Assembly (NCBI RefSeq): GCF_016026235.1
Contig: NZ_CP065613.1
Source of the DNA: Escherichia coli
Lineage (GTDB): Bacteria; Pseudomonadota; Gammaproteobacteria; Enterobacterales; Enterobacteriaceae
Length of the DNA stretch: 64,000 nt
Direction: 5' to 3' (one strand)
This document shows, in pieces, positions 13,132 through 64,000 of this stretch. A program made the translations under genes and the position numbers. How positions within the stretch are numbered: the first letter of the stretch is position 1; each line of letters starts with the position of its first letter. The notes beneath the pieces were generated by a model that did no database searches, was not told where the DNA came from, and worked only from the letters and a program-made list of their open reading frames with translations.

Positions 13132-13396
13132 GATATGACTTTCCGTGTCAAACCGGAATCTCTAATTTTGACGATTTTCTTTTTAGGTTTAATTCCCTGA
13201 GGGCGACGTAGCAGTAAATCCGACGGTGAATCACGCTGATATTCGCGGGTTGGATACCGCATTACAGAGGTCCGTCATATGAGCCTGCCACTTTCTTACG
13301 TCGCGAATCAGCTTTGTTCCGCCGTCGCCAAGCGCTAACGTGGGTTACTCTTGTACCGGGCTACGTCGCCTTCAGGGAACTGGTTATTCTCATTTT
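13132..13396 (-). ncRNA. Candidate structured non-coding RNA (bridge/seek-type guide RNA) in the 3' non-coding region of the IS110-family element
   Basis: No credible ORF; long-range inverted repeat CCCTGAGGGCGACGTAGC (13195-13212) pairs with GCTACGTCGCCTTCAGGG (13360-13377) at 17 of 18 positions; strand and exact ends not determined. Confidence 0.3.
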
Positions 13397-14524
13397 TTAT
13401 TTGTGACATTGTGGTTGTTGTGCGACAGACATTGCTATTCGGCCCATATCCCAGATAAAACCCGCCAGCTCACGTGCAACAGCAACAATTGTAATATTGA
13501 CATTCTTTCCTTTGGCCTGAAGTTTTCGATACCTCTTACAAAGCCTGAGTTGAGCATCCCATGCTCTGTCAATGACGGGGCGGGGTAAATTTTCCTGCCT
13601 TTTTTGTATTGCCGGACTGATGCGTGCCGGATGACGGTAACTCCACGCTGCCTCGACCAATAGCTTTCTGGCATAGCTGTTTCCGGCTTTGGTAATGCTG
13701 CCCTGATGTCTGCTTCCACCCGATGAATATTCTGATGGCGTGATACCAAACCATGACATCAGTTGTCGTGGATGTTCAAAACGGGTCAGATCACCCAGTT
13801 CAGAAATTAATCCAACCGCAGTAATAAACTGAATCCCTCGCATGGCTTGCAGCGCCTCTACTACCGGATACAGCCTCCATTCGGTAACGGCCTCCTTCAG
13901 GGCGGATTCCAGCCGTTCACATTGTGCCTGCCGGTCTTCTATTGTACGACGGTGTTCGTCAAAAGCTAATTGTCGCCAGGGACTTTCGAATGAGTATTTG
14001 CTGAGCCAGCGTCGGTGTGCAGGGCCCCAATCTGCTCGCCCGACATAATGGACCCCATGAACCAGAAGAAACGATTTCAGACGTTGCCTTGCATGCCGTA
14101 AATCATCGCGGGCAGATGCCCATGCCCGGGCCAAATCCCGGAATGCCTCATCTTCAATGCCGGGTACGTAGACAGCAGAAAGATCTCCTGCACGCAGTGA
14201 ACGCACAAGTCTGATGGCATCACGGCGATCGGTTTTAACCCGCTCCCCCGGTTTTTTCGGGATAAGTGAGGGGGCGCAGACCATGCAGTCAAAACCGGAT
14301 TTCACCAGCCGACGATAAAGTCCATAACCACAGGGCCCCGCTTCATAAACGATACTGACCTGCGATGACTTTGACCTGAGACGTTTACAAAGATTCTGAA
14401 TATCAGTAGGTGATGTGCCAATTTTACCCATCAGTTCAACAGGTTCTGAATTGATAGCATAAGCGACAGTAATCGATTCTTTGTGAACATCTAACCCGAC
14501 GTACAATGTGTTATTGTTGTTCAT
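13397..14524 (-). CDS. IS110-family (DEDD) transposase/recombinase, 375 aa
   Basis: ORF track 13397..14572; start assigned at MNNNNTLYVGLDVHK; RuvC-like acidic motifs (LYVGLDVHK, VYEAGPCGY, KTDRRDA) and a C-terminal GITPSEYSSGGS...SITKAGNSYARK region. Confidence 0.85.
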   Translation of the reverse strand: MNNNNTLYVGLDVHKESITVAYAINSEPVELMGKIGTSPTDIQNLCKRLRSKSSQVSIVYEAGPCGYGLYRRLVKSGFDCMVCAPSLIPKKPGERVKTDRRDAIRLVRSLRAGDLSAVYVPGIEDEAFRDLARAWASARDDLRHARQRLKSFLLVHGVHYVGRADWGPAHRRWLSKYSFESPWRQLAFDEHRRTIEDRQAQCERLESALKEAVTEWRLYPVVEALQAMRGIQFITAVGLISELGDLTRFEHPRQLMSWFGITPSEYSSGGSRHQGSITKAGNSYARKLLVEAAWSYRHPARISPAIQKRQENLPRPVIDRAWDAQLRLCKRYRKLQAKGKNVNITIVAVARELAGFIWDMGRIAMSVAQQPQCHK

Positions 14525-15559
14525 GCTGGCCTCCGTGGTGGAAATACCGGGGTGTAGCAACAGCTCACCCATGCGGCTCTGACAACGATGTTAACCCGCG
14601 TTAAATATCCCACGTTGGCCAGCATCTGTCTCACGGAAAGTCATACTGCCTTACGGGCCGATGCTACCGGAGCTGCTCGGCGGTTCGGCGGATCTGGCTC
14701 CCAGCAACCTGACCATCTGGAAAGGTTCTGTTTCGCTGAAGGAAGATCCGGCGGGCAACTACATTCACTACGGGGTGCGTGAATTTGGCATGACCGCTAT
14801 CGCCAACGGCATTGCGCACCACGGCGGCTTTGTGCCGTATACCGCAACGTTCCTGATGTTTGTTGAATACGCCCGTAACGCCGCGCGGATGGCGGCACTG
14901 ATGAAAGCGCGGCAGATTATGGTTTATACCCACGACTCAATTGGTCTGGGCGAAGATGGTCCGACGCACCAGGCTGTTGAGCAACTGGCCAGCCTGCGCT
15001 TAACGCCAAATTTCAGCACCTGGCGACCGTGCGATCAGGTGGAAGCGGCGGTGGGCTGGAAGCTGGCGGTTGAGCGCCACAACGGACCGACGGCACTGAT
15101 TCTCTCCAGGCAGAATCTGGCCCAGGTGGAACGTACGCCGGATCAGGTTAAAGAGATTGCTCGTGGCGGTTATGTGCTGAAAGACAGCGGCGGTAAGCCA
15201 GATATTATTTTGATTGCCACCGGTTCAGAGATGGAAATCACCCTGCAAGCGGCAGAGAAATTAGCGGGAGAAGGTCGCAATGTTCGCGTAGTTTCCCTGC
15301 CCTCGACCGATATTTTCGACGCCCAGGATGAGGAATATCGGGAGTCGGTGTTGCCTTCTAACGTTGCGGCTCGCGTGGCGGTGGAAGCAGGTATTGCCGA
15401 TTACTGGTACAAGTATGTTGGTCTGAAAGGGGCAATTGTCGGGATGACGGGTTATGGGGAATCTGCTCCGGCGGATAAGCTGTTCCCGTTCTTTGGCTTT
15501 ACCGCCGAGAATATTGTGGCAAAAGCGCATAAGGTGCTGGGAGTGAAAGGTGCCTGATG

Positions 15560-15597: not shown

Positions 15598-16456
<859 letters not shown>

Positions 16457-16481
<25 letters not shown>

Positions 16482-16978
16482 TTCTCCAGCTCCTGGCGCT
16501 TTTTTTCCAGGAGATGCTCCTGCATGGCTTTCAGATATGCATTTTCTGCGCGAAGATAACGCAGCTCATTCTTCATCTCTTCCGGCGTCATGTTTCCCTC
16601 GTTTTCATGGGTATCATTAGAACGGGTCATGCTTTTCTCCTTCCTGCGCCTGATAAAGGCCTCATTACCAGATTTGCGGTAGCCTTTTATCCAGTTTTTA
16701 ACCATGTTGTGGCTGGGAATGTTAAACCGGGCAGCTACCCGGGGTAGAGACTCAGAATGCCCGAGAGCATAAAGAACCACGCAAAGTTTATCTTCAGGAG
16801 AATAGCTACGCTTGTGTCTGCAATCCAGTGCCTGAGGACCGTGAAGAAGAAAAAGATTAATCCAGTGTGAGAGGCTGGTGTGAGAAAGTTGAAAGAGTTT
16901 TGCCGTAGAAATGATGCCTGCATGACCGGCCAGGTAATGATTTACAGCGGCAAGTTTTACTTCAAATGAATGTTTCAT
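16457..16978 (-). CDS. insJ: IS150 OrfA (InsJ), helix-turn-helix DNA-binding protein
   Basis: 173 aa starting MKHSFEVKLAAVNHYLAGHAG; leucine-zipper-like C-terminus. Confidence 0.88.
16499..16505 (-). other. Probable programmed -1 ribosomal frameshift heptamer A-AAA-AAG in the IS150 orfA/orfB overlap
   Basis: Reverse-strand CTG GAA AAA AAG CGC near the end of orfA, with orfB open in the -1 frame. Confidence 0.55.
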
Positions 16979-20880: not shown

Positions 20881-21085
20881 AACGACCTTCTTTTTTGGTT
20901 GTAAAAACCTTATTCTTTATATGAGTGTTGTTATTACCCGACTTACAGGGGAATCGGCAATGTTCATGTGCCCAGAATAAGTAACTATTTCGCTATAAAC
21001 TGTGGCAGATCAAATAATCCCATCATTGACTAAATTGCGTTTCAGCGAACTGGAACATTAATGATTTTTTGTGGAGAAGACGCGT

Positions 21086-22786
21086 GTGATTGTTAAACGA
21101 CCCGTCTCGGCCAGTCTGGCCCGGGCCTTTTTTTACATTGTGCTGCTGTCGATTCTTTCCACGGGTATCGCTCTGCTAACTCTGGCGAGCAGTTTGCGCG
21201 ACGCTGAGGCTATCAATATTGCCGGATCGCTGCGTATGCAGAGTTACCGCCTGGGCTACGACTTGCAAAGTGGCAGTCCACAACTCAATGCACATCGCCA
21301 GCTGTTTCAGCAGGCACTGCATTCACCGGTATTAACCAATCTCAACGTCTGGTATGTGCCAGAAGCAGTAAAAACTCGCTATGCGCATCTGAATGCCAAC
21401 TGGCTGGAGATGAATAATCGTCTCAGCAAGGGCGACTTGCCGTGGTATCAGGCCAATATTAATAACTATGTTAATCAGATAGACCTGTTCGTGCTGGCTT
21501 TACAGCACTACGCTGAACGCAAAATGCTGCTGGTGGTGGCGATTTCCCTAGCTGGCGGCATCGGTATTTTCACGCTGGTCTTTTTTACTTTGCGCCGCAT
21601 ACGCCATCAGGTGGTTGCCCCGCTGAATCAGCTGGTTACCGCCAGTCAGCGTATTGAACACGGGCAGTTCGACTCGCCGCCGCTGGATACCAGCCTGCCG
21701 AATGAGCTTGGTCTGCTTGCAAAAACCTTTAACCAGATGTCGAGCGAGCTGCATAAATTGTACCGTTCGCTGGAGGCGTCAGTAGAAGAAAAGACTCGCG
21801 ATCTCCACGAGGCCAAGCGTCGTCTGGAGGTGTTGTATCAATGTTCGCAGGCGCTGAACACCAGCCAGATTGATGTGCATTGTTTCCGCCATATTTTGCA
21901 GATTGTTCGCGACAATGAAGCGGCTGAATATCTGGAGTTAAATGTCGGTGAAAACTGGCGGATTAGCGAAGGGCAACCAAACCCGGAATTGCCGATGCAG
22001 ATTTTACCGGTGACAATGCAAGAGACGGTTTACGGCGAACTGCACTGGCAAAATAGTCACGTTTCATCATCAGAACCGCTGCTTAACAGCGTTTCGTCGA
22101 TGCTGGGACGCGGTTTGTACTTTAATCAGGCGCAGAAGCATTTTCAGCAGTTATTGTTGATGGAAGAACGTGCAACCATCGCCCGCGAATTGCACGACTC
22201 GCTGGCTCAGGTACTTTCTTACTTACGTATCCAGTTGACGTTACTTAAGCGTTCGATACCGGAAGATAACGCCACCGCACAAAGTATCATGGCCGATTTT
22301 TCCCAGGCGTTGAATGATGCTTATCGGCAGTTACGCGAGCTGTTGACTACTTTCCGCCTGACGCTGCAGCAGGCGGATCTCCCCTCCGCGTTGAGGGAAA
22401 TGCTGGATACGTTACAAAATCAAACCAGCGCCAAACTGACCCTCGACTGCCGTCTGCCAACCCTGGCGCTGGATGCGCAAATGCAGGTGCATTTGTTGCA
22501 AATTATTCGCGAAGCGGTGCTGAATGCGATGAAGCACGCCAACGCCAGCGAAATCGCCGTCAGTTGCGTCACCGCGCCGGACGGCAATCACACGGTTTAT
22601 ATCCGTGATAACGGGATTGGTATCGGTGAACCGAAAGAACCCGAAGGTCATTATGGTCTGAATATCATGCGCGAACGCGCGGAACGGCTAGGTGGGACGC
22701 TGACTTTTTCACAACCTTCCGGCGGCGGCACGTTAGTGAGTATTAGCTTTCGCTCTGCGGAGGGTGAGGAAAGTCAGTTGATGTAA
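21086..22786 (+). CDS. narQ: Nitrate/nitrite sensor histidine kinase NarQ
   Basis: ORF track 21071..22786; probable GTG start at 21086 (MIVKRPV) gives 566 aa; two transmembrane segments, HAMP and histidine kinase (ELHDSLAQ) regions. Confidence 0.88.
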   Translation: MIVKRPVSASLARAFFYIVLLSILSTGIALLTLASSLRDAEAINIAGSLRMQSYRLGYDLQSGSPQLNAHRQLFQQALHSPVLTNLNVWYVPEAVKTRYAHLNANWLEMNNRLSKGDLPWYQANINNYVNQIDLFVLALQHYAERKMLLVVAISLAGGIGIFTLVFFTLRRIRHQVVAPLNQLVTASQRIEHGQFDSPPLDTSLPNELGLLAKTFNQMSSELHKLYRSLEASVEEKTRDLHEAKRRLEVLYQCSQALNTSQIDVHCFRHILQIVRDNEAAEYLELNVGENWRISEGQPNPELPMQILPVTMQETVYGELHWQNSHVSSSEPLLNSVSSMLGRGLYFNQAQKHFQQLLLMEERATIARELHDSLAQVLSYLRIQLTLLKRSIPEDNATAQSIMADFSQALNDAYRQLRELLTTFRLTLQQADLPSALREMLDTLQNQTSAKLTLDCRLPTLALDAQMQVHLLQIIREAVLNAMKHANASEIAVSCVTAPDGNHTVYIRDNGIGIGEPKEPEGHYGLNIMRERAERLGGTLTFSQPSGGGTLVSISFRSAEGEESQLM

Positions 22787-31228: not shown

Positions 31229-32092
31229 TTAAATGCTTTTACCAAAAGTATTGCATTGTGCCGGATCGCCGCTGTCGAAACCACGTTTAAACCAGCTGTA
31301 GCGTTGCTGAGAAGTGCCATGAGTGAAACTGTCTGGTACTACTCGCCCCTGACTTTGCTGTTGTAAACGGTCATCGCCGATGGCCTGCGCCGCGTTCAGC
31401 GCCTCTTCCAGATCGCCGGTTTCCAGAACGCCTTGCTGCTGCATACTATGCCCCCAGACACCGGCAAAACAGTCGGCCTGGAGTTCCATACGCACAGATA
31501 AGCGGTTCACTTCCGCCTGCGTCGCGTTTTGTTGCAGTTGACGAACTTTCGGCTCGATGCCTAACAGTTTCTGCACATGATGACCGACTTCATGGGCGAT
31601 AACGTACCCTTGGGCAAAATCGCCATCCGCGCCAAGTTTGTCTTTCATGTCATCATAGAAGGAGAGATCGATATAAACCGTGCCATCCGCCGGGCAATAG
31701 AACGGCCCCATTATGGACTGGCCCGCCCCGCATCCGGTACGCGTCATTCCACGGTACATGACCAGCTTCGGTTGCTGATAGGTCTTACCCATCTTCTCGA
31801 ACTGTTGTCCCCAGGTGTCTTCCGTGGTTGCCAGAATCACCGAGGTGAATTTTGCGGCTTCGTCTTCATTTGGGCTAATTGATCGCGTTGATTGCTGTTG
31901 AGAAACCGGCTGCCCGGTCATCAACCCGGTTAAATCAACGCCATAGTAGCCTGCAACCAGCACGACTATCAGTAAAATCAGCCCGCCTTTACCGCTCGGC
32001 AGACGGAAACCGGGACCGCCCATTGACGGACCACCGGAGCTATTGCGCCTGTCTTCAACATTGTCACTTTCACGTCGCCCTTGCCAACGCAT
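31229..32092 (-). CDS. ypfJ: Putative zinc metalloprotease-like protein YpfJ
   Basis: 287-aa ORF with an HEVGHH zinc-binding motif and an N-terminal transmembrane segment. Confidence 0.85.
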
Positions 32093-32259
32093 AGATACCT
32101 CAACAATATATTCATTATAGAAATGATCGTAGGTGGTTCAGAGGAAGATTACCACAGGAAAGCGGGATGAAATGGCGGAGGAATGAGCGTTCAATGCACA
32201 TCTTACGAGAATGGTTGTCTTGCCGTGCCAGCAGCACGGCAAGATGATGAACAGAAAAA

Positions 32260-36555: not shown

Positions 36556-37173
36556 ATGAACCGCTTTGTGGTGGCCGAACCACTGTGGTGTACAGGATGT
36601 AATACCTGTCTCGCTGTCTGTTCGGACGTGCATAAAACGCAAGGTTTACAGCAACACCCGCGCCTGGCCCTGGCGAAGACGTCAACACTCACTGCCCCTG
36701 TCGTGTGTCATCACTGTGAGGAAGCCCCTTGCCTGCAGGTCTGCCCGGTCAATGCCATCTCCCAGAGGGATGATGCGATCCAACTCAACGAAAGCCTCTG
36801 TATTGGCTGCAAGCTTTGCGCCGTGGTCTGCCCATTTGGCGCAATCAGCGCTTCAGGAAGCCGTCCGGTGAATGCCCCTGCGCAATATGTTTTTCAGGCT
36901 GAAGGCTCACTCAAAGACGGCGAAGAAAACGCGCCAACACAACATGCTTTGCTGCGCTGGGAACCGGGTGTCCAGACCGTCGCGGTGAAATGCGACCTGT
37001 GTGATTTCTTGCCAGAAGGTCCGGCCTGCGTTCGCGCTTGCCCGAATCAGGCGTTACGGCTGATCACCGACGATAGCCTGCAACGTCAGATGAAAGAAAA
37101 ACAGCGCCTTGCCGCAAGCTGGTTTGCCAATGGCGGGGAGGATCCCCTTTCCCTCACTCAGGAGCAACACTAA
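36556..37173 (+). CDS. hyfA: Hydrogenase-4 component A, 4Fe-4S ferredoxin-type
   Basis: 205-aa ORF with multiple CxxCxxCxxxCP motifs. Confidence 0.9.
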   Translation: MNRFVVAEPLWCTGCNTCLAVCSDVHKTQGLQQHPRLALAKTSTLTAPVVCHHCEEAPCLQVCPVNAISQRDDAIQLNESLCIGCKLCAVVCPFGAISASGSRPVNAPAQYVFQAEGSLKDGEENAPTQHALLRWEPGVQTVAVKCDLCDFLPEGPACVRACPNQALRLITDDSLQRQMKEKQRLAASWFANGGEDPLSLTQEQH

Positions 37174-39195
37174 TGGATGCCCTGCAATTATTAACCTGGT
37201 CGCTGATCCTCTATCTGTTTGCCAATCTGGCTTCGCTGTTTTTACTCGGTCTGGACAGACTGGCTATTAAGCTTTCCGGCATCACATCGCTGGTGGGCGG
37301 CGTGATTGGCATCATCAGCGGAATTACGCAATTACATGCTGGTGTAACTTTAGTCGCCCATTTTGCCACCCCTTTTGACTTTGCCGATTTAACCCTGCGA
37401 ATGGATAGCCTCTCGGCATTTATGGTGCTGGTTATCTCCTTGCTGGTGGTGGTTTGTTCGCTCTATTCATTGACTTATATGCGCGAATACGAGGGCAAAG
37501 GCGCGGCGGCGATGGGCTTCTTTATGAATCTTTTCATCGCATCGATGGTTGCCCTGCTGGTGATGGACAACGCTTTTTGGTTCATCGTGCTGTTTGAAAT
37601 GATGTCGCTGTCTTCCTGGTTTCTGGTCATTGCCAGGCAGGATAAAACGTCGATCAACGCTGGCATGCTCTACTTTTTTATCGCCCACGCCGGATCGGTG
37701 CTGATTATGATCGCCTTCTTGCTGATGGGGCGCGAAAGCGGCAGCCTCGATTTTGCCAGTTTCGCACGCTTTCACTTTCTCCGGGGCTGGCGTCGGCGGT
37801 GTTTCTGCTGGCCTTTTTCGGTTTTGGCGCGAAAGCCGGGATGATGCCGTTGCACAGCTGGTTGCCGCGCGCTCACCCTGCCGCACCATCGCACGCTTCG
37901 GCGTTGATGTCTGGCGTAATGGTCAAAATCGGTATTTTCGGCATCCTGAAAGTAGCGATGGATCTGCTGGCGCAAACGGGTTTGCCTCTGTGGTGGGGCA
38001 TTCTGGTGATGGCGATCGGCGCAATCTCCGCGCTCCTGGGCGTGCTATATGCGCTGGCGGAACAGGATATCAAACGGCTGCTGGCCTGGAGTACCGTCGA
38101 AAACGTCGGCATTATTTTGCTGGCAGTCGGTGTGGCGATGGACGGTCTGTCACTGCACGACCCGCTGCTCACCGTGGTTGGACTGCTCGGCGCACTGTTT
38201 CATCTGCTCAACCATGCGCTGTTCAAAGGGCTGCTATTTCTCGGCGCGGGCGCGATTATTTCGCGTTTGCATACCCACGACATGGAAAAAATGGGGGCAC
38301 TGGCGAAACGGATGCCGTGGACAGCCGCAGCATGCCTGATTGGTTGCCTCGCGATATCAGCCATTCCTCCGCTGAATGGTTTTATCAGCGAATGGTACAC
38401 CTGGCAGTCGCTGTTCTCACTAAGTCGTGTGGAAGCCGTAGCGCTACAACTTGCGGGTCCTATTGCTATGGTAATGCTGGCAGTCACTGGTGGGCTGGCA
38501 GTAATGTGCTTCGTAAAAATGTACGGTATTACTTTCTGTGGTGTGGTGCGCCGCGCAGTACACACGCTGAAGAGGCACAGGAAGTGCCAAATACGATGAT
38601 CGTCGCCATGCTACTGCTCGCGGCACTCTGCGTATTAATTGCGCTTAGTGCCAGTTGGCTGGCACCGAAGATAATGCATATTGCCCATGCGTTTACCAAT
38701 ACCCCTCCCGTCACTGTCGCCAGCGGAATAGCACTTGTACCCGGCACGTTTCATACACGGGTCACTCCTTCATTACTGTTGCTGTTACTACTGGCGATGC
38801 CTTTGCTGCCTGGCCTTTACTGGCTGTGGTGTCGTTCGCGCCGCGCAGCGTTTCGTCGCACAGGAGATGCCTGGGCATGCGGCTACGGCTGGGAAAATGC
38901 GATGGCCCCGTCAGGCAATGGCGTGATGCAGCCGCTGCGTGTGGTCTTTTCTGCGCTATTTCGTCTACGACAACAGCTCGACCCTACGCTGAGGCTAAAT
39001 AAAGGTCTTGCGCACGTCACCGCCAGGGCTCAGAGCACAGAACCCTTCTGGGATGAGCGGGTGATCCGCCCCATCGTGAGCGCCACCCAACGGCTGGCCA
39101 AAGAAATACAGCATCTGCAAAGCGGCGACTTTCGTCTCTATTGCCTGTATGTGGTCGCCGCACTGGTTGTGCTGCTAATCGCTATTGCCGTCTAA
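37173..39195 (+). pseudogene. hyfB: Hydrogenase-4 membrane subunit HyfB, disrupted by two frameshifts
   Basis: Three consecutive ORF segments in frames 0, 2 and 1 (37173..37844, about 37760..38547, about 38548..39195); total 2023 nt, which equals a 673-codon gene minus 1 plus 5. Confidence 0.8.
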
Positions 39196-39205
39196 GGAAA
39201 TCACC

Positions 39206-40153
39206 ATGAGACAAACTCTTTGCGACGGATATCTGGTCATTTTTGCGTTAGCACAGGCCGTGATTCTGCTGATGCTAACCCCACTTTTTACGGGTATTTC
39301 CCGGCAGATACGCGCGCGTATGCACTCCCGCCGCGGGCCGGGGATCTGGCAGGATTATCGCGATATCCACAAACTGTTTAAACGCCAGGAAGATGCGCCG
39401 ACATCTTCAGGTCTGATGTTCCGCCTGATGCCGTGGGTATTAATCAGCAGCATGCTGGTGCTGGCGATGGCCCTACCACTATTTATTACCGTTTCCCCTT
39501 TTGCGGGCGGCGGCGATCTGATCACCCTTATCTATCTTCTTGCCCTGTTTCGTTTTTTCTTTGCTCTTTCAGGGCTGGATACCGGAAGCCCGTTTGCGGG
39601 AGTCGGTGCCAGTCGCGAGTTGACGCTCGGCATTCTGGTCGAACCCATGCTCATTCTCTCACTGCTGGTATTGGCGCTGATAGCAGGTTCCACGCATATC
39701 GAGATGATCAGCAATACGCTGGCAACGGGCTGGAACTCGCCGCTAACCACCGTACTGGCGTTACTGGCCTGTGGTTTTGCCTGCTTCATTGAGATGGGAA
39801 AAATTCCCTTTGATGTTGCTGAAGCAGAACAGGAATTACAGGAAGGCCCGCTGACAGAATATTCCGGTGCCGGGCTGGCGCTGGCGAAATGGGGGCTGGG
39901 GCTGAAACAGGTCGTGATGGCAGCACTGTTTGTGGCCCTGTTTCTGCCCTTTGGGCGCGCGCAAGAACTTTCTCTCGCCTGCCTGCTGACTTCACTTGTC
40001 GTTACGCTGCTCAAGGTTTTGCTGATTTTTGTACTGGCCTCAATCGCAGAAAACACGCTGGCACGCGGGCGTTTTTTACTCATTCACCATGTGACCTGGC
40101 TTGGCTTCAGCCTTGCTGCGCTTGCATGGGTCTTCTGGTTAACCGGTCTGTAA
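39206..40153 (+). CDS. hyfC: Hydrogenase-4 membrane subunit HyfC (NuoH-like)
   Basis: ORF track 39185..40153; start at MRQTLCDGYLVIF gives 315 aa. Confidence 0.88.
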   Translation: MRQTLCDGYLVIFALAQAVILLMLTPLFTGISRQIRARMHSRRGPGIWQDYRDIHKLFKRQEDAPTSSGLMFRLMPWVLISSMLVLAMALPLFITVSPFAGGGDLITLIYLLALFRFFFALSGLDTGSPFAGVGASRELTLGILVEPMLILSLLVLALIAGSTHIEMISNTLATGWNSPLTTVLALLACGFACFIEMGKIPFDVAEAEQELQEGPLTEYSGAGLALAKWGLGLKQVVMAALFVALFLPFGRAQELSLACLLTSLVVTLLKVLLIFVLASIAENTLARGRFLLIHHVTWLGFSLAALAWVFWLTGL

Positions 40154-40169
40154 GGAGCACTGACGGAAT

Positions 40170-41608
40170 ATGGAAAATCTTGCTCTGACGACGTTATTGC
40201 TGCCTTTTATCGGCGCACTGGTCGTTTCGTTTTCGCCACAACGTCGGGCCGCCGAATGGGGGGTTTTGTTCGCCGCGCTGACCACGCTGTGCATGTTGTC
40301 GCTGATCTCCGCGTTTTATCAGGCCGATAAAGTTGCCGTCACGTTGACGTTGGTCAACGTGGGGGATGTGGCATTGTTTGGCCTGGTCATTGATCGCGTG
40401 AGTACGCTGATTCTGTTTGTGGTGGTGTTTCTCGGTTTGCTGGTCACGATCTACTCCACGGGTTATCTGACGGATAAAAATCGCGAACACCCGCATAACG
40501 GCACGAATCGTTATTACGCATTTTTGCTGGTGTTTATCGGCGCGATGGCGGGACTGGTACTCTCCTCGACGCTGCTCGGTCAGTTGTTGTTTTTTGAAAT
40601 TAGGGCGGCTGCTCCTGGGCGTTGATCAGTTATTACCAGAGCGATAAAGCGCAGCGTTCAGCACTAAAAGCGTTGCTTATCACCCATATCGGTTCGTTGG
40701 GGTTGTATCTTGCCGCCGCCACGCTGTTTTTGCAGACCGGAACGTTTGCGCTTAGCGCAATGAGCGAGTTACACGGCGACGCACGTTATCTGGTTTATGG
40801 CGGGATCCTGTTTGCCGCGTGGGGGAAATCGGCCCAGCTACCGATGCAAGCGTGGCTACCGGATGCAATGGAAGCGCCAACACCGATCAGCGCCTATCTC
40901 CACGCCGCATCGATGGTGAAAGTGGGCGTTTACATTTTTGCCCGCGCAATTATCGACGGCGGCAATATCCCGCATGTGATTGGCGGCGTTGGCATGGTCA
41001 TGGCACTGGTCACCATTCTTTATGGCTTTCTGATGTATTTGCCACAGCAGGATATGAAGCGGTTGCTGGCCTGGTCGACCATCACTCAACTTGGCTGGAT
41101 GTTCTTCGGCTTGTCGCTCTCCATCTTCGGCTCGCGGCTGGCGCTGGAGGGTAGCATCGCCTACATCGTCAACCACGCGTTCGCTAAAAGCCTGTTTTTC
41201 CTTGTAGCAGGTGCGCTGAGTTACAGCTGCGGCACGCGCTTGTTGCCGCGTCTGCGTGGCGTATTGCACACCCTGCCGTTGCCAGGCGTGGGTTTCTGCG
41301 TGGCAGCGCTGGCGATTACCGGCGTGCCGCCGTTCAACGGCTTCTTCAGTAAATTCCCGCTGTTTGCTGCCGGTTTTGCGTTGTCAGTGGAGTACTGGAT
41401 CCTGCTGCCCGCCATGATTCTGCTGATGATTGAATCGGTCGCCAGTTTCGCCTGGTTTATTCGCTGGTTTGGTCGCGTTGTGCCTGGCAAACCGAGCGAG
41501 GCCGTCGCCGATGCCGCACCGCTGCCAGGGTCAATGCGCCTGGTGTTGATTGTACTGATTGTGATGTCGCTGATTTCCAGCGTAATCGCCGCGACCTGGT
41601 TGCAGTAA
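40170..41608 (+). pseudogene. hyfD: Hydrogenase-4 membrane subunit HyfD, disrupted by one frameshift
   Basis: Two ORF segments (40170..40625 and 40622..41608) in different frames; total 1439 nt, which equals a 480-codon gene minus 1. Confidence 0.8.
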
Positions 41609-41619
41609 GGAGATGATGA

Positions 41620-42270
41620 ATGACCGGTTCTATGATCGTAAATAATCTGGCGGGACTGATGATGCTGACATCGCTGTTTGTGATTAGCGTCAAAAGCTAT
41701 CGCCTGTCATGCGGATTTTACGCCTGCCAGTCGCTGGTGCTGGTGTCTATTTTCGCCACTCTCTCGTGCCTGTTCGCCGCAGAGCAACTGCTGATCTGGT
41801 CCGCCAGCGCCTTTATCACCAAAGTGCTGCTGGTACCGTTAATCATGACTTACGCTGCACGAAATATTCCCCAGAACATCCCGGAAAAAGCGTTATTCGG
41901 TCCGGCAATGATGGCACTGCTCGCGGCGTTAATTGTCCTGCTTTGCGCATTTGTCGTTCAGCCCGTGAAGCTACCGATGGCTACCGGGCTGAAACCGGCG
42001 CTGGCGGTAGCGTTAGGTCATTTTCTGCTTGGCCTGCTGTGCATTGTCAGCCAGCGCAATATCCTGCGGCAAATTTTTGGTTACTGCCTGATGGAAAACG
42101 GCTCCCATCTGGTGCTGGCGCTTCTTGCCTGGCGAGCACCGGAACTGGTGGAAATAGGTATCGCTACCGACGCCATCTTCGCCGTCATTGTGATGGTGTT
42201 ACTGGCAAGAAAAATATGGCGTACCCACGGCACGCTGGACGTGAACAACTTGACCGCGCTGAAGGGATAA
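41620..42270 (+). CDS. hyfE: Hydrogenase-4 membrane subunit HyfE
   Basis: 216-aa hydrophobic ORF; operon position. Confidence 0.88.
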
Positions 42271-42274
42271 TGAG

Positions 42275-43855
42275 ATGAGTTATTCTGTGATGTTCGCTTT
42301 ACTCCTGCTCACGCCGCTGCTTTTTTCGCTGCTCTGTTTTGCCTGCCGGAAACGGGGGCTCTCTGCGACTTGTACGGTGACTGTATTACATAGCTTAGGG
42401 ATCACACTGCTGCTGATTCTAGCACTCTGGGTGGTCCAAACTGCCGCTGATGCAGGAGAAATATTCGCTGCGGGACTGTGGCTTCATATTGATGGTCTGG
42501 GCGGTTTGTTCCTCGCCATTCTTGGTGTGATTGGCTTTCTCACCGGTGTTTACTCGATTGGCTACATGCGTCATGAAGTGGCACACGGCGAGCTTTCACC
42601 CGTTACGCTGTGCGATTACTACGGTTTCTTCCATCTGTTTTTGTTCACCATGCTGCTGGTTGTTACCAGCAATAACCTGATTGTGATGTGGGCGGCGATC
42701 GAAGCCACCACCTTAAGCTCGGCGTTTCTGGTAGGCATTTACGGTCAGCGTTCATCGCTGGAAGCTGCATGGAAGTACATCATTATTTGTACTGTTGGTG
42801 TCGCTTTTGGTCTGTTCGGTACCGTGCTGGTATACGCCAACGCCGCCAGCGTTATGCCGCAGGCAGAAATGGCGATATTCTGGAGCGAGGTTCTTAAGCA
42901 ATCGTCCTTGCTTGACCCAACATTAATGCTGTTGGCCTTTGTGTTTTTGCTAATTGGCTTTGGTACCAAAACCGGGCTATTTCCCATGCACGCCTGGCTG
43001 CCGGATGCTCACAGTGAAGCGCCGAGTCCGGTCAGCGCCCTGCTCTCCGCCGTATTGCTGAACTGCGCGCTGTTGGTGCTGATTCGCTATTACATCATTA
43101 TTTGCCAGGCCATCGGCAGCGATTTCCCCAACCGGTTGTTGCTCATCTTCGGCATGTTGTCGGTTGCCGTGGCGGCATTTTTCATTCTGGTACAGCGGGA
43201 CATTAAGCGTCTGCTGGCGTACTCCAGCGTGGAGAACATGGGGCTGGTCGCGGTGGCGCTAGGCATTGGCGGGCCGCTGGGAATTTTTGCCGCGCTGCTG
43301 CACATCTTAAACCACAGTCTGGCAAAAACGCTGCTGTTCTGCGGTTCCGGCAATGTACTGCTCAAGTACGGCACGCGCGATCTCAACGTCGTCTGTGGGA
43401 TGCTCAAAATCATGCCATTTACCGCCGTGCTGTTTGGCGGCGGTGCGCTGGCGCTGGCAGGGATGCCGCCCTTCAACATTTTTCTTAGCGAATTTATGAC
43501 CATTACCGCCGGACTGGCACGTAATCACCTGCTGATTATCGTCCTGCTGTTATTGCTGTTAACGCTGGTGCTGGCGGGCCTGGTACGGATGGCAGCGCGG
43601 GTGTTAATGGCGAAACCGCCGCAGGCCGTTAACCGGGGTGATCTCGGCTGGTTGACCACCTCGCCAATGGTGATTCTGCTGGTCATGATGCTGGCGATGG
43701 GAACGCATATTCCACAACCTGTCATCAGGATCCTGGCGGGCGCTTCCACTATAGTCCTCTCAGGGACGCACGACCTGCCTGCACAACGTAGCACCTGGCA
43801 TGATTTTTTGCCTTCAGGCACCGCATCTGTTTCGGAGAAACACAGTGAACGTTAA
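42275..43855 (+). CDS. hyfF: Hydrogenase-4 membrane subunit HyfF (NuoL/M/N-like antiporter module)
   Basis: 526-aa polytopic ORF. Confidence 0.88.
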
Positions 43856-45512
43856 TTCATCGTCAAATCGTGGCGAAGCGATTCTCGCCGCCCTGAAAAC
43901 GCAGTTCCCCGGCGCGGTGCTGGATGAAGAGCGACAAACGCCTGAACAGGTCACCATTACGGTGAAAATCAATCTGCTGCCTGACGTTGTACATTATCTT
44001 TATTATCAACATGATGGCTGGCTTCCAGTCCTGTTTGGCAACGACGAGCGGACACTTAACGGTCATTACGCGGTTTATTATGCCCTTTCAATGGAAGGGG
44101 CCGAAAAATGCTGGATCGTGGTGAAGGCACTGGTCGATGCCGACAGTCGGGAGTTTCCGTCAGTCACACCGCGCGTCCCTGCCGCGGTCTGGGGCGAGCG
44201 AGAAATTCGCGATATGTACGGGCTGATTCCGGTTGGCCTGCCGGATCAGCGTCGCCTGGTGTTGCCCGATGACTGGCCGGAAGATATGCATCCGCTGCGC
44301 AAAGATGCGATGGATTATCGACTGCGCCCTGAACCGACGACAGATTCCGAAACGTATGCGTTTATCAATGAGGGCAACAGCGATGCGCGGGTGATCCCTG
44401 TCGGCCCGCTGCATATCACCTCCGATGAACCGGGTCACTTCCGCTTGTTTGTGGATGGCGAGCAAATTGTCGATGCTGATTACCGCCTGTTATATGTCCA
44501 TCGCGGCATGGAGAAACTGGCAGAAACGCGGATGGGCTACAACGAAGTGACCTTCTTATCGGACCGCGTGTGTGGGATTTGCGGTTTTGCCCACAGTGTG
44601 GCCTATACCAACTCGGTTGAAAATGCACTGGGGATTGAGGTGCCGCAACGAGCACATACTATTCGCTCGATTCTGCTGGAAGTCGAACGGCTACACAGTC
44701 ATTTGCTTAACCTTGGCCTCTCCTGCCATTTCGTTGGTTTTGATACCGGCTTTATGCAATTTTTCCGCGTGCGGGAAAAGTCGATGACGATGGCGGAATT
44801 GCTGATCGGGTCGCGTAAAACCTACGGTCTGAATCTGATTGGTGGTGTTCGCCGCGATATTCTCAAAGAGCAACGTCTGCAAACGCTGAAACTGGTGCGC
44901 GAGATGCGCGCCGACGTGTCGGAGCTGGTAGAGATGCTGCTTGCTACGCCGAATATGGAACAACGCACTCAGGGCATTGGCATTCTCGACCGACAAATCG
45001 CCCGTGATTTGCGCTTTGATCACCCCTACGCCGACTACGGCAATATTCCAAAAACACTGTTTACCTTTACCGGCGGCGATGTTTTCTCCCGCGTGATGGT
45101 CCGTGTCAAAGAGACGTTTGATTCGCTGGCAATGCTGGAATTTGCCCTCGACAACATGCCGGATACCCCACTGCTGACCGAAGGCTTTAGCTATAAACCT
45201 CACGCATTCGCGCTGGGCTTTGTTGAAGCGCCACGCGGTGAAGACGTGCACTGGAGCATGCTCGGTGATAACCAAAAATTGTTCCGCTGGCGCTGCCGTG
45301 CCGCCACCTACGCCAACTGGCCGGTGTTGCGTTACATGCTGCGCGGCAATACCGTTTCTGACGCACCGCTGATTATCGGTAGCCTTGATCCCTGCTACTC
45401 CTGTACCGACCGTGTGACGCTGGTAGATGTGCGCAAGCGCCAGTCAAAAACCGTGCCGTATAAAGAGATCGAACGCTACGGCATTGATCGTAACCGTTCA
45501 CCGCTGAAGTAA
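43845..45512 (+). CDS. hyfG: Hydrogenase-4 large [NiFe] catalytic subunit HyfG
   Basis: ORF track 43800..45512; probable GTG start at 43845 gives 555 aa; [11 protein letters not shown]-terminal and [10 protein letters not shown]-terminal Ni-binding motifs. Confidence 0.88.
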
Positions 45513-45521
45513 GGACAGAAG

Positions 45522-46067
45522 ATGCTGAAGTTACTGAAAACTATTATGCGCGCCGGAACCGCGACGGTGAAATATCCCTTCGCGCCACTGGAGGTCAGCC
45601 CAGGCTTTCGCGGGAAACCGGACCTGATGCCCAGCCAATGTATTGCCTGCGGTGCCTGCGCCTGTGCTTGTCCGGCAAATGCGCTGACTATCCAGACCGA
45701 CGACCAGCAAAATTCGCGCACCTGGCAGCTCTATCTGGGGCGTTGTATTTACTGCGGACGTTGTGAAGAAGTGTGTCCGACCAGAGCCATCCAGCTTACC
45801 AATAACTTTGAACTGACCGTCACCAATAAAGCCGATCTCTATACCCGCGCGACGTTCCATCTACAACGTTGCAGCCGTTGCGAACGCCCGTTTGCCCCGC
45901 AAAAAACCGTCGCACTGGCTGCTGAATTGTTGGCACAGCAACAAAATGCGCCACAAAACCGCGAAATGTTATGGGCGCAAGCGAGCGTCTGCCCGGAGTG
46001 CAAACAACGCGCGACGCTGCTCAACGACGATACAGATGTACCGCTGGTGGCTAAGGAGCAGCTATGA
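45522..46067 (+). CDS. hyfH: Hydrogenase-4 Fe-S subunit HyfH
   Basis: 181-aa ORF with [12 protein letters not shown] and [12 protein letters not shown] motifs. Confidence 0.9.
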
Positions 46068-46822
46068 GTCCAGTGCTTACACAACATGTCAGCCAGCCCA
46101 TCACGCTGGACGAGCAAACGCAAAAGATGAAGCAGCATTTGCTACAGGATATCCGTCGCTCGGCTTACGTTTATCGCGTCGATTGCGGCGGCTGCAACGC
46201 CTGTGAAATCGAAATTTTTGCTGCCATCACCCCCGTATTCGACGCAGAACGTTTTGGCATTAAGGTTGTTTCATCACCGCGTCACGCCGATATTTTGTTA
46301 TTTACTGGCGCAGTCACTCGGGCGATGCGTATGCCTGCACTTCGGGCGTATGAGTCTGCCCCCGATCATAAAATCTGTGTTTCCTACGGCGCGTGCGGTG
46401 TCGGCGGCGGTATTTTCCACGATCTCTACAGCGTCTGGGGCGGCAGCGACACCATTGTCCCCATTGATGTTTGGATCCCCGGCTGCCCGCCAACACCGGC
46501 CGCCACCATTCACGGTTTCGCCGTGGCGCTCGGTTTGCTGCAACAGAAGATTCACGCTGTGGATTATCGCGATCCCACCGGGGTGACTATGCAACCGTTG
46601 TGGCCGCAGATCCCGCCATCACAGCGTATCGCCATTGAGCGAGAAGCGCGGCGGCTGGCGGGCTATCGTCAGGGGCGAGAAATTTGCGATCGGCTCCTGC
46701 GCCATTTAAGCGACGATCCTACAGGAAATCGGGTTAACACCTGGTTGCGCGATGCCGACGATCCACGTCTCAATAGTATCGTTCAGCAACTCTTTCGCGT
46801 ACTCCGGGGGTTACATGACTGA
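46064..46822 (+). CDS. hyfI: Hydrogenase-4 small subunit HyfI (NuoB-like)
   Basis: 252-aa ORF with [16 protein letters not shown] and GCPP motifs. Confidence 0.9.
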
Positions 46823-47228
46823 AGAGTGCGGGGAAATTGTTTTCTGGACGCTGCGAAAAAAGTTTGTCGCCAGTAGCGACGAGATGCCGGAACACAGCTC
46901 TCAGGTAATGTATTACTCGCTGGCTATCGGCCATCACGTTGGCGTGATTGATTGTCTGAATGTCGCCTTCCGCTGCCCACTGACGGAATACAAAGATTGG
47001 CTTGCACTGGTCGAAGAGGAGCAAGCCCGACGTAAGATGCTGGGGGTGATGACTTTTGGTGAGATTGTTATTGACGCCAGCCACACCGCCCTGTTGACCC
47101 GGGCATTCGCGCCACTGGCAGATGACGCGACGTCTGTGTGGCAAGCGCGTAGCATTCAATTCATTCATCTGTTGGATGAAATTGTGCTGGAACCGGCTAT
47201 CTATCTGATGGCCAGAAAAATTGCGTGA
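46815..47228 (+). CDS. hyfJ: HyfJ (HycH-like hydrogenase maturation/processing protein)
   Basis: ORF track 46752..47228; start at [11 protein letters not shown] gives 137 aa. Confidence 0.8.
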
Positions 47229-47257
47229 GAAGGATTTCTCATTAATAAGGACTGTTG

Positions 47258-49269
47258 ATGGCTATGTCAGACGAGGCGATGTTTGCCCCGCCGCAAGGAA
47301 TAACAATTGAAGCGGTAAACGGAATGCTCGCGGAGCGGTTAGCGCAGAAACACGGCAAGGCGTCTTTATTACGCGCCTTCATCCCGCTGCCGCCGCCGTT
47401 CAGCCCGGTACAACTTATTGAACTGCATGTTCTCAAAAGCAACTTCTATTACCGCTACCATGATGATGGCAGCGATGTGACGGCAACAACAGAGTATCAG
47501 GGCGAGATGGTCGATTATTCGCGTCACGCCGTCCTTCTCGGCAGTAGTGGAATGGCGGAGCTACGCTTTATTCGTACCCACGGCAGCCGTTTTACTCCCC
47601 AGGATTGCACACTGTTTAACTGGCTGGCACGCATTATCACTCCGGTTCTGCAATCATGGCTCAATGATGAAGAACAACAGGTGGCGCTGCGTTTGCTGGA
47701 GAAAGATCGCGATCATCATCGGGTACTGGTTGATATTACTAATGCAGTGCTGTCACATCTTGATCTCGACGATCTGATCGCTGACGTCGCTCGTGAGATC
47801 CATCATTTTTTCGGTCTGGCTTCAGTCAGTATGGTACTGGGCGATCATCGAAAGAACGAGAAGTTTAGCCTGTGGTGCAGCGATCTTTCTGCCTCACATT
47901 GTGCGTGTCTGCCACGCAATATGCCTGGCGACAGTGTATTGCTGACACAAACGCTACAAACCCGACAACCGACCTTGACGCACCGTGCAGACGTCTGTTT
48001 CTCTGGCAACGCGACCCGTTATTACTCTTACTTGCATCTAACGGCTGCGAATCTGCGCTCCTTATACCGCTTACCTTTGGCAACCATACACCGGGTGCAT
48101 TGTTGCTGGCGCATACCTCTTCCACTCTCTTTAGTGAGGAAAACTGCCAGCTACTACAACACATAGCCGATCGCATCGCTATTGCCGTTGGCAATGCCGA
48201 TGCCTGGCGTAGAATGACCGATTTGCAGGAAAGTTTGCAGCAAGAAAACCACCAGCTTAGCGAGCAGCTCCTTTCGAATCTGGGCGTCGGTGACATTATC
48301 TATCAAAGCCAGGCAATGGAAGACCTACTCCAGCAGGTAGATATTGTGGCGAAGAGCGACAGTACGGTGTTGATTTGCGGTGAAACCGGAACCGGCAAAG
48401 AGGTGATCGCCAGAGCGATCCATCAACTTAGCCCGCGACGCGACAAGCCGCTGGTCAAAATCAACTGCGCTGCCATCCCCGCCAGTCTTCTGGAAAGTGA
48501 GTTATTCGGTCATGACAAAGGAGCGTTTACTGGTGCGATTAATACCCATCGTGGTCGTTTTGAAATTGCCGATGGCGGCACGTTGTTTCTCGATGAAATT
48601 GGCGATCTGCCGTTAGAACTTCAGCCTAAACTGCTGCGCGTATTGCAGGAACGGGAGATTGAGCGTCTCGGCGGGAGTAGAACGATCCCGGTAAATGTCA
48701 GAGTCATTGCCGCCACCAACCGTGATTTGTGGCAAATGGTTGAAGATCGCCAGTTTCGCAGCGATCTCTTTTATCGCCTGAATGTCTTCCCACTGGAATT
48801 GCCGCCGCTGCGCGACCGTCCGGAAGATATCCCTCTTTTAGCAAAGCATTTCACGCAAAAAATGGCGCGCCATATGAATCGTTCAATTGACGCCATCCCG
48901 ACCGAGGCGCTACGCCAGTTGATGTCGTGGGACTGGCCGGGCAACGTGCGCGAGCTGGAAAACGTGATTGAGCGAGCGGTACTGCTGACTCGCGGTAACA
49001 GTCTGAATTTACATCTTAATGTCCGACAAAGCCGTTTACTGCCGACGCTAAATGAAGATTCAGCGCTTCGCAGTTCAATGGCGCAGTTGCTGCACCCGAC
49101 GACGCCAGAGAATGACGAAGAAGAACGTCAGCGCATTGTTCAGGTATTGCGAGAAACCAATGGCATTGTTGCCGGGCCCCGTGGCGCGGCGACACGATTA
49201 GGGATGAAGCGCACCACGCTGCTGTCACGAATGCAGCGTCTGGGGATCTCGGTTCGCGAGGTGTTGTAA
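47258..49269 (+). pseudogene. hyfR: Sigma-54-dependent activator HyfR (GAF + AAA+ + HTH), disrupted by one frameshift in the GAF region
   Basis: Two overlapping ORF segments in different frames (47255..48166 and 47872..49269); total 2012 nt, which equals a 671-codon gene minus 1; the downstream segment has the sigma-54 activator motifs GETGTGKE and GAFTGA. Confidence 0.8.
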
Positions 49270-49290
49270 TCTGCTTTTGCAGGAGTATGC

Positions 49291-50139
49291 ATGAGAAACA
49301 AACTCTCTTTCGACTTGCAGTTGAGCGCCAGAAAAGCGGCAATCGCTGAACGGATTGCCGCCCATAAAATTGCCCGCAGTAAAGTGTCGGTCTTTTTAAT
49401 GGCGATGTCCGCTGGCGTGTTTATGGCGATCGGATTTACTTTTTACCTTTCCGTTATCGCCGATGCCCCGTCTTCACAGGCATTAACCCATCTGGTGGGC
49501 GGCCTTTGCTTTACACTCGGCTTTATTTTGCTGGCGGTTTGCGGCACCAGCCTGTTCACCTCGTCGGTAATGACGGTGATGGCAAAAAGTCGGGGCGTTA
49601 TTAGTTGGCGAACTTGGCTGATTAACGCACTTCTGGTGGCCTGTGGTAATCTGGCAGGTATTGCCTGTTTCAGTTTGTTAATCTGGTTTTCCGGGCTGGT
49701 GATGAGTGAAAACGCGATGTGGGGAGTCGCGGTTTTACACTGCGCCGAGGGCAAAATGCATCATACATTTACTGAATCTGTCAGCCTCGGCATTATGTGC
49801 AATCTGATGGTTTGCCTGGCGCTGTGGATGAGTTATTGCGGGCGTTCGTTATGCGACAAAATCGTCGCCATGATTTTGCCCATCACCCTGTTTGTCGCCA
49901 GTGGCTTTGAGCACTGTATCGCCAATTTGTTTGTGATTCCGTTCGCCATTGCCATTCGCCATTTCGCCCCTACCTCCTTCTGGCAACTGGCGCACAGTAG
50001 CGCAGACAATTTTCCGGCACTGACGGTCAGCCATTTTATTACCGCCAATCTGCTCCCGGTGATGCTGGGTAATATTATCGGCGGTGCAGTGCTGGTGAGT
50101 ATTTGTTATCGGGCTATTTATTTACGTCAGGAATCCTGA
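49291..50139 (+). CDS. focB: Formate channel FocB (FNT family)
   Basis: 282-aa polytopic ORF at the end of the hyf operon. Confidence 0.88.
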   Translation: MRNKLSFDLQLSARKAAIAERIAAHKIARSKVSVFLMAMSAGVFMAIGFTFYLSVIADAPSSQALTHLVGGLCFTLGFILLAVCGTSLFTSSVMTVMAKSRGVISWRTWLINALLVACGNLAGIACFSLLIWFSGLVMSENAMWGVAVLHCAEGKMHHTFTESVSLGIMCNLMVCLALWMSYCGRSLCDKIVAMILPITLFVASGFEHCIANLFVIPFAIAIRHFAPTSFWQLAHSSADNFPALTVSHFITANLLPVMLGNIIGGAVLVSICYRAIYLRQES

Positions 50140-62050: not shown

Positions 62051-64000
62051 TCAGGCACTTTCGCGAATGGGTTCGATTTCATTCAACGTATCAATTAACG
62101 GCTGCGGCTTACCAATAAGATAACCCTGCATATAATCGATCCCCAAAGAGAGCACCGCCTCGCGGATCTCTTCGTTTTCAACGTACTCTGCCACTACCCG
62201 CATTTTCTTCATTCGCGCCAGGTGGCAAATCGATGCCACTATCTGATAATCCAGACTATTTGACACAATATTGCGGATAAAACTGCCGTCAATTTTAAGC
62301 AGATCGGCATTCACATTTTTAAGCCGTGCATAGCTGGCGTAGCCGGTGCCGAAATCATCAATCGCAATCTGGCAGCCTAATTCCTGAAGATGCTGCAAGG
62401 TGATTTGCGCCTGCTTAACATTGGTCAGAGCATTACTTTCGGTGACTTCAAAAATAAGTTGCCACGCTTCAATCTGATATTTAGCCAGCAACTGACTGAC
62501 TTCAACAGGAAAACGAGCCTGACATACCGAGGTTGGAGACAGATTAATAGCAAAACGGTGAGCGGGCATCTTCGCTCTGTTTTCAGCCATAAATTGCAGC
62601 GTATGCTCAATGACCCACATGTCGATACTCGACGATAAACCAAATTCGTGCGCGACCGGCAAGAAGCTATCGGGGCCGATCAGTTCATCATTCTCACCTT
62701 TCATGCGCAGAAGAATTTCATGGTAAACATCACCACGCATACCGGTAATCGGCTGGGCCATCAGGAAAAAATGGTTGTGTTCCAGCGCCTGCTGTAGTCG
62801 ATTCATCATCGCGACTTTATCTTTCAATTCGCGTTGCAAATACATTGCCCCGCGACGCTGCATATTTTCCGGGGCGTTGGTCACGATGGAAAGTTCGGCG
62901 ACCGTATTTAGCTCTCCCAGCAGCAGGTAGATATGATTCACTGGCGAGCGCACATAGCAGTAACTGACGCCAATCTGCGGTTGCATCGGCATGCCATCCC
63001 AAAAGAAACGAAATTGCTTGAGATGGCTATCCAGTGCGGTAATGCGCTCCTGGTGCGATTCTGTATTCAGTCGCAGCGCGAGATCGTTACCCGAAAGCTG
63101 ATAAACATCTTCACCCGGTTCCAGCAAGGGTGACAGCCAGTGAGAAAGTTTTTGCTTGTATTGAATCCGCAGCATGATGCCATAGTTCTTAACCAGCATT
63201 TCCATGCCAGGGATGCGTAAATAACAAAGCGCAGACCAGGGGGCATCACGCAACGCGCGATTCAGGGCGCGAACATTTGGCAGATGAACCACCGGGTCCA
63301 CATACGCAAGCCGCTGAATGCGTCTGACTACCGCTCTCTGACGGGTTGCCAGTACAGCCATATAATTGACAATAAAAGAGAATACCAGATAACTGGAGGA
63401 GGTTATGGTCAGCTGCGTGGTATAGCCAGGATAAATGGGAATGTAATTTTGATAGCTGTGGATGCTGATCATCAACACGACCGCCCAGAGCAGCGAAATC
63501 AGCTTATAACCATAGCGCATCGCTCCCCACATCATCAGGGGCAGCAATAATGACAAGGTATAATTGGTGCTAAAAATTGTGCTTTTTTCATTTAACGGCA
63601 TGCATAACAGCAACAATAAAGCACCTAATGCCAGTAGCCAGAGCGCGAACTCTTTTTTGGTGACTTTGGCATCAACCTGCTGTTTTAATTGCGAATAATA
63701 GCTACGTAAATAAAATGGATTTCGCACTACCCGAATGATGAAGTAGCACAGCGGGACACCGATCAGATTACCCACCAGTAAGGCCTGATAATTGATTAAA
63801 GTCCCGAGGTTAAAAGGCATGACACCGACCAGATTTTCTCTGCTCGCCAATAATCCTACAAATGCAGCAAACTGGAAAAGTATCAGAAACAGCGTTGCAG
63901 GAAACACAATCTGCCAGAATATACGCTGGGAAATTAAACGGGTATCACCATGTGAAACGTTGTTACGCCGGGGAGTAAAGACCCTGTAACCGCCCCAACA
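62051..64000 (-). CDS. pdeF: Cyclic-di-GMP phosphodiesterase PdeF (YfgF), 3' 649 codons; the 5' end lies beyond the window
   Basis: ORF track 62051..63907 (618 aa from an internal GTG); the frame stays open to position 64000; C-terminal EAL domain and N-terminal transmembrane MASE-like region. Confidence 0.85.
   Translation of the reverse strand, partial: CWGGYRVFTPRRNNVSHGDTRLISQRIFWQIVFPATLFLILFQFAAFVGLLASRENLVGVMPFNLGTLINYQALLVGNLIGVPLCYFIIRVVRNPFYLRSYYSQLKQQVDAKVTKKEFALWLLALGALLLLLCMPLNEKSTIFSTNYTLSLLLPLMMWGAMRYGYKLISLLWAVVLMISIHSYQNYIPIYPGYTTQLTITSSSYLVFSFIVNYMAVLATRQRAVVRRIQRLAYVDPVVHLPNVRALNRALRDAPWSALCYLRIPGMEMLVKNYGIMLRIQYKQKLSHWLSPLLEPGEDVYQLSGNDLALRLNTESHQERITALDSHLKQFRFFWDGMPMQPQIGVSYCYVRSPVNHIYLLLGELNTVAELSIVTNAPENMQRRGAMYLQRELKDKVAMMNRLQQALEHNHFFLMAQPITGMRGDVYHEILLRMKGENDELIGPDSFLPVAHEFGLSSSIDMWVIEHTLQFMAENRAKMPAHRFAINLSPTSVCQARFPVEVSQLLAKYQIEAWQLIFEVTESNALTNVKQAQITLQHLQELGCQIAIDDFGTGYASYARLKNVNADLLKIDGSFIRNIVSNSLDYQIVASICHLARMKKMRVVAEYVENEEIREAVLSLGIDYMQGYLIGKPQPLIDTLNEIEPIRESA

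Follow-up and report, generated by a model that had tools for sequence, protein, structure and literature searches.

The hyf operon of Escherichia coli encodes hydrogenase-4, and in the stretch of E. coli DNA analysed here (64,000 nt, called the window below) the reading frame of hyfB, the gene for subunit B, is broken. Is this break an error of sequencing, a signal read by the ribosome, or a true loss of the gene? The preliminary description of the locus claimed that at 37758-37765 the reading frame changes from 0 to 2 while the protein continues sensibly; it took the cause to be the loss of one T from an ancestral TTTT, and named a homopolymer sequencing or assembly error as another possibility. 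The gene starts in frame 0 at 37173, and the letters at 37758-37765 are AGTTTCGC. Frame 0 gives ...GSLDFASF and then arginine- and cysteine-rich nonsense (ARFHFLRGWRRRCFCW...) up to the TGA stop listed in Table 1, while frame 2, from 37763, gives RTLSLSPGLASAVFLLAFFGFGAKAGMMPL..., in agreement with K-12 HyfB starting at residue 198, and runs without a stop to the end of its segment. The switch of frame and the continuity of the protein are both borne out by direct alignment with K-12 hyfB. In this MAFFT alignment one base is missing at gene position 591, after window position 37762, and over the 2,019 nt of K-12 hyfB the window gene shows 18 substitutions besides two indels in all. The 1-bp deletion behind the break is real and is read directly from the alignment, not from a statistical signal.

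Which base was lost? The intact allele reads AGTTTCCGC (TTC CGC), and the comparison of TTTCGC in the window with TTTCCGC in the intact gene shows that a CC pair has lost one C. The codons AGT TTC CGC are found in all intact alleles that were aligned, from K-12, two K-12-like strains, two divergent strains and IAI1, and a 71-mer carrying TTTT has an exact match in none of the 4,292 complete genomes that bear hyfB. Thus the 1-bp deletion stands as first described and the T does not. Since TTT and TTC both encode phenylalanine, the choice between T and C could not have been made in the preliminary description. If one C is put back and the second lesion of the gene is removed, a 672-aa ORF is restored, with 8 residues different from K-12 HyfB.

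Can the broken gene still be placed in a family? In K-12 HyfB the Pfam domain Proton_antipo_M covers residues 136-425, and the break, at codon 197 of 672, lies inside it. Of the 294 profile positions of Proton_antipo_M, the window fragments cover 6-77 and 85-286, the latter range in the middle segment, and Proton_antipo_N is also present. Together with the orthology to K-12 and the gene order hyfA-hyfB-hyfC...hyfR-focB, the same as in K-12, this places the gene in the HyfB family. Its reading frame of about 672 codons is interrupted by two frameshifts and by the premature stop, and because of this interruption the window hyfB is filed as a HyfB-family pseudogene. One other candidate was rejected: the long ORF at 37753-39195 (480 aa) might be taken for a C-terminal HyfB, but it lies in frame 1, where over its first ~260 codons it is stop-free nonsense read out of frame, and it becomes meaningful only past the 5-bp duplication. 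The features of the operon are collected in Table 1. [quoted passage not shown]

Table 1. Positions of the hyf operon and its lesions in the window.
Feature	Position	Strand	Remarks
hyfABCDEFGHIJR-focB operon	36556..50139	+	PGAP table of near-identical record, operon alignment
hyfB pseudogene (hydrogenase-4 / FHL-2 membrane subunit B)	37173..39195	+	2,023 nt vs 2,019 nt in K-12; three frame segments
1-bp deletion site, gene position 591, codon 197/198, adjoining 37763	37760..37765	+	alignment, exact-match counts
Premature TGA, frame 0	37842..37844	+	predicted product 223 aa (197 native and 26 out-of-frame residues)
hyfB middle segment, frame 2, HyfB residues 198-455	37763..38536	+	open for 774 nt; rest of Proton_antipo_M
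Second hyfB lesion, 5-bp tandem duplication (TGTGG to TGTGGTGTGG), gene position 1365	38537..38541	+	frame 2 to frame 1
hyfB C-terminal segment, frame 1, to native stop	38542..39195	+	
hyfD pseudogene, 1-bp deletion (C, gene position 434) after 40602	40170..41608	+	
hyfR pseudogene (sigma-54 activator of hyf operon), 1-bp deletion (A, gene position 737) after 47993	47258..49269	+	

How common is the hyfB deletion in the species? Exact matches to queries across the site were counted in 5,426 complete E. coli genomes. The 70-mer with the deletion occurs in 1,254 of them (1,256 with a 66-mer), that is in about 23%, and many of these carriers come from collections of non-O157 Shiga-toxin and enterotoxigenic strains. 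The intact 71-mer with CC occurs in 2,517 genomes, about 59% of those bearing hyfB. Some 520 remaining hyfB-bearing genomes match exactly none of the deleted, CC and TTTT queries; the rows sampled from this group (for example O157:H7) are 71 bases long, a sign of a nearby SNP, and all non-carrier rows sampled have this length as well. No hyfB match was obtained in 1,128-1,134 of the 5,426 genomes. On the protein side, the exact 223-aa truncated product was found on 426 public contigs in NCBI, ENA and Logan; the cluster to which it belongs counts 921 members, other 223-aa variants among them. The label "frameshifted" is given to hyfB by PGAP in all six carrier records fetched, and the window from 37100 to 39300 is 100% identical to NZ_CP065615.1, where PGAP has "hyfB, frameshifted". 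The pseudogene status of hyfB is already known through this RefSeq/PGAP annotation. No published account of the deletion or its frequency was found in the full-text literature on frameshift, pseudogene or phylogroup together with hyfB, hyf or hydrogenase 4; the hyf literature found there concerns engineered hyf deletions, selection scans in Shigella sonnei and the absence of hyf from phylogroup B2.

The record NZ_CP065615.1 belongs to FDAARGOS_943, an assembly of the window lineage that is distinct from the window, with 20 SNPs over 49 kb (window 14650-64000), nearly all of them transitions. The two also differ outside the hyf operon. An insertion of ~1.5 kb at 13132-14649 is not present in FDAARGOS_943 at that site; it contains a 391-aa ORF on the minus strand (13400-14572), which NCBIfam assigns to the IS110-family RNA-guided transposases (E 2e-81). 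The gene narQ (~21082-22782) looks intact in the window and is "frameshifted" in FDAARGOS_943 by a 4-bp CTTA duplication (at window 22217). In the eut region, two tandem copies of an 86-nt palindromic REP/BIME-like element lie at 540-725 with a spacing of 100 nt and 97% identity, and FDAARGOS_943 has one copy fewer. Further features were noted in the window itself: an IS3-family transposase with programmed frameshift between ypfG and tkt (~15630-16978, from the PGAP annotation of the near-identical record), and, on the minus strand at 62051-64000, another pseudogene, pdeF, which is incomplete in the near-identical record with its N-terminus missing and whose break lies past the window end.

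Could a base simply have been dropped at a short run during assembly, so that the real hyfB is intact? Indels are a common class of error. However, the same deleted 70-mer stands in the 1,254 carrier genomes, which were assembled independently, and the truncated product stands on contigs from several archives. The lost base belonged to a CC pair and not to a long homopolymer, so that the site is not of the indel-prone homopolymer kind. FDAARGOS_943, though not identical to the window, carries the hyfB deletion too, and the two assemblies share all four hyf lesions despite their SNPs, the narQ indel and the IS110 insertion. Because the deletion recurs in 1,254 genomes, on 426 contigs, in all six PGAP records and in this pair of distinct assemblies, a sequencing error is for all practical purposes excluded. 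The possible artefact named in the preliminary description thus finds no support, as an artefact should not be reproduced in independent assemblies, and reference sequences that share the frame break were found 1,254 times.

If the deletion is real, might a HyfB protein still be made from it? One way would be a programmed or tolerated -1 ribosomal frameshift, in which tRNA-Phe slips from UUC to UUU (context A GUU UCG), CGC is decoded next and HyfB is made at some level. Read by eye, the sequence would allow this: one -1 slip in the P site, on U UUC, would be enough to recreate the wild-type ...S-F-R-T-L... exactly. But the site (GCC AGU UUC GCA) has no slippery heptamer X XXY YYZ, leaving only the single-tRNA slip on U UUC, and the downstream 87 nt, with an MFE of -28.8 kcal/mol where shuffled sequences average -30.1 (z = +0.41), fold no better than these. 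Nor is the break conserved: it is confined to one haplotype group, against 2,517 genomes with the unshifted CC allele. Moreover, the +5 frameshift further downstream in the window is beyond repair by a -1 slip, and other hyf genes are broken in every carrier sampled, which makes recoding very improbable. Another way would be a split gene, the 223-aa N-terminal piece forming a working HyfB with a C-terminal piece re-initiated at, for example, GTG 37799 or ATG 37839. Carriers without the 5-bp duplication have no stop in the downstream frame between 37799 and the native one, which would allow such a piece. Yet the break cuts Proton_antipo_M at profile position ~77-85 of 294, the downstream piece of the window is broken again at 38537, other subunits are lost in carriers too, and inspection of the local sequence by eye, without scoring, gave no clear ribosome-binding site. 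We consider two cooperating pieces to be just as improbable as recoding. Finally, a change of 1 bp in a short run is also what slipped-strand mispairing would leave at a phase-variable on/off switch. Known contingency repeats are far longer than the CC/C tract, which is neither a long homopolymer nor a tandem repeat; the carriers form one haplotype cluster and are not scattered, and the secondary lesions accumulated in them argue against frequent reversion, so the probability of such a switch is close to nil.

Did the deletion arise once or many times? The hyfB genes of six carriers differ from each other by 5-16 substitutions, while at least 17 separate any carrier from any non-carrier, and the six carriers share one flanking SNP haplotype around the deletion site. 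Because the carriers share one hyfB haplotype, the comparison, with its small sample of six carriers, points to a single mutational event that would then have been inherited. A more specific reading, in which the deletion marks phylogroup B1 and is the founding lesion of the operon, was dropped: the B1 reference strain IAI1 has an intact hyfB and a broken hyfD and focB. To judge from the lesions seen, hyfB dC is not demonstrably the founding lesion. The same strains were found to differ at another locus as well: between ypfJ and purC (window ~32000-32170), IAI1 and the other five fetched carriers of hyfB dC (loci L002, L004-L007 and L012) have a vapBC toxin-antitoxin cassette, which is missing in the window lineage and in the remaining five non-carriers fetched, the K-12-like strains among them.

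What happened to the rest of the operon? To describe the co-occurrence of lesions, the operon from hyfA to focB was aligned for the window and ten other genomes, and a sample of 12 genomes was used. Extra disruptive lesions, in hyfC, hyfD, hyfF, hyfR or focB, are present in 6/6 carriers and in 1/6 non-carriers, and the lesions differ between carriers. All twelve hyf-focB genes are intact in five of the six non-carriers; the exception is IAI1, which has hyfD dG89 and focB dT681 beside its intact hyfB. Our own calculation with a one-sided Fisher test puts the contrast of 6/6 and 1/6 at ~0.008, for a small sample in which two non-carriers (L008 and L011) are near-identical. In the other carriers, hyfD shows dG89, a 208-bp deletion or an in-frame deletion of 216 bp, and outside hyfD there are hyfC dC290, hyfF dT47, hyfF dG225, stop codons in hyfF, and focB dT681. 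Across strains the lesions of hyfD number at least five, namely dG89 within a run of G, dT352, dC434, the 208-bp deletion and the in-frame 216-bp deletion, and they occur in combinations that do not pass the four-gamete test.

The lesions of the window differ much in frequency. An exact 70-mer across hyfD dC434 occurs in 351 complete genomes, whereas among complete E. coli genomes the +5 duplication of hyfB is found only in FDAARGOS_943, and so is hyfR dA737. The context of the last one is non-repetitive (GACGATCTG to GACGTCTG), and the exact 302-aa truncated hyfR product lies on at least 24 public contigs. For hyfB dC and hyfD dG89 all four combinations of alleles are present. This failure of the four-gamete test points to recombination (or recurrent mutation), which would have reshuffled the lesions among the decayed hyf alleles. 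The operon-wide pN/pS is 0.17 for decayed alleles and 0.11 for intact ones. The gap is a weak sign of relaxed constraint, too slight to count as evidence, and long-standing relaxed selection is not clearly shown. The operon also holds an in-frame polymorphism, an indel of 48 bp in hyfG at ~45350 (gene position 1155) that gives forms of 1,668 and 1,716 nt; the window has the short form, and the indel segregates independently of the hyfB lesion among strains.

What would the loss of HyfB mean for hydrogenase-4? In Pectobacterium, deletion of hyfBCDEF leaves ~5% of FHL-2 activity, while deletion of hyfDEF has no effect, and in E. coli FHL-1 is inactive without HycC, the homologue of HyfB (PMC7384014). 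The E. coli hyf operon is poorly expressed natively, and that of K-12 is described as silent or poorly expressed and as being without an accessory gene (PMC7384014). Because of the Pectobacterium hyf and E. coli HycC deletion results, the loss of HyfB would be expected to abolish hydrogenase-4 activity. From these observations a scenario may be drawn. One C of the CC pair at nucleotide 591 of hyfB, a gene for a NuoL/M/N-like membrane subunit, was lost, probably once and on one hyfB haplotype, and the mutation has since been inherited vertically. Translation from the hyfB start is predicted to depart from the native frame after Phe197 and to stop 26 codons on, and the resulting 223-aa fragment, cut within the antiporter-like domain, would provide no functional HyfB. 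The operon of the carriers has further independent lesions elsewhere, with the 5-bp duplication and the hyfD and hyfR frameshifts probably added in the window lineage. All this may be the neutral decay of an operon that, even in its intact form, is poorly expressed. We therefore hold, with high confidence, that the break in hyfB is a genuine, vertically inherited loss-of-function frameshift and that the gene is an ordinary pseudogene in a decaying hyf operon.

Is there any reason to think of selection instead of neutral decay? One explanation is that the loss of FHL-2 was selected and defines a lineage, in a major clade rich in bovine and in Shiga-toxin or enterotoxigenic strains. This draws on HyfB being the membrane subunit whose loss should abolish activity, while HyfD-F are dispensable in Pectobacterium. 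If it is true, the later mosaic of hyfD, hyfF, focB and hyfR lesions, reshuffled by recombination, records the loss of FHL-2. In a weaker variant, strains that have only hyfB dC would keep a trickle of HyfB through -1 slippage on U UUC at a low level. We regard these as unlikely, though not so remote as the artefact, recoding, split-gene and switch readings considered above.

Under the preferred reading, in which hyfB is an inherited pseudogene in a decaying operon, several consequences follow for the use of these genomes. The window hyfB is a true pseudogene, and annotation should not "repair" it. Through one point deletion that they have in common, about a quarter of the complete E. coli genomes would be left with a genetically inactive hydrogenase-4, and about a fifth more have no hyfB match. 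Because of the frequencies of the deletion and of hyfB absence, conclusions on Hyd-4/FHL-2 based on K-12 would fail for much of the species. The deletion site also provides a simple one-base marker of lineage. The loss of hyfB is unsurprising for an operon that has long been described as silent or poorly expressed.

How does the locus compare with known systems? Like hyfB of K-12 (b2482, hydrogenase-4 component B), the window gene lies between hyfA and hyfC and has the same Proton_antipo_N/M architecture; unlike it, the window gene is broken by the -1 deletion (nt 591) and the +5 duplication (nt 1365) and cannot encode 672 aa. The deletion and its position are identical to those in many RefSeq E. 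coli records that PGAP labels "hyfB, frameshifted" (for example NZ_CP065615.1, NZ_AP019856.1, NZ_CP025892.1 and NZ_CP016546.1). Most of the genomes with this PGAP label, unlike the window, are without the 5-bp duplication and the hyfR deletion, and have instead hyfD dG89, the 208-bp hyfD deletion, hyfF lesions and focB dT681. In addition, hyf is among the genes missing from phylogroup B2 (PMC2617782; PMC6896753). That absence, in B2 and related lineages, is, like the lesion in the window, another route by which a large share of the species would be without Hyd-4/FHL-2. The difference is that here the operon is present, ~99% identical to functional alleles, and inactivated by point indels.
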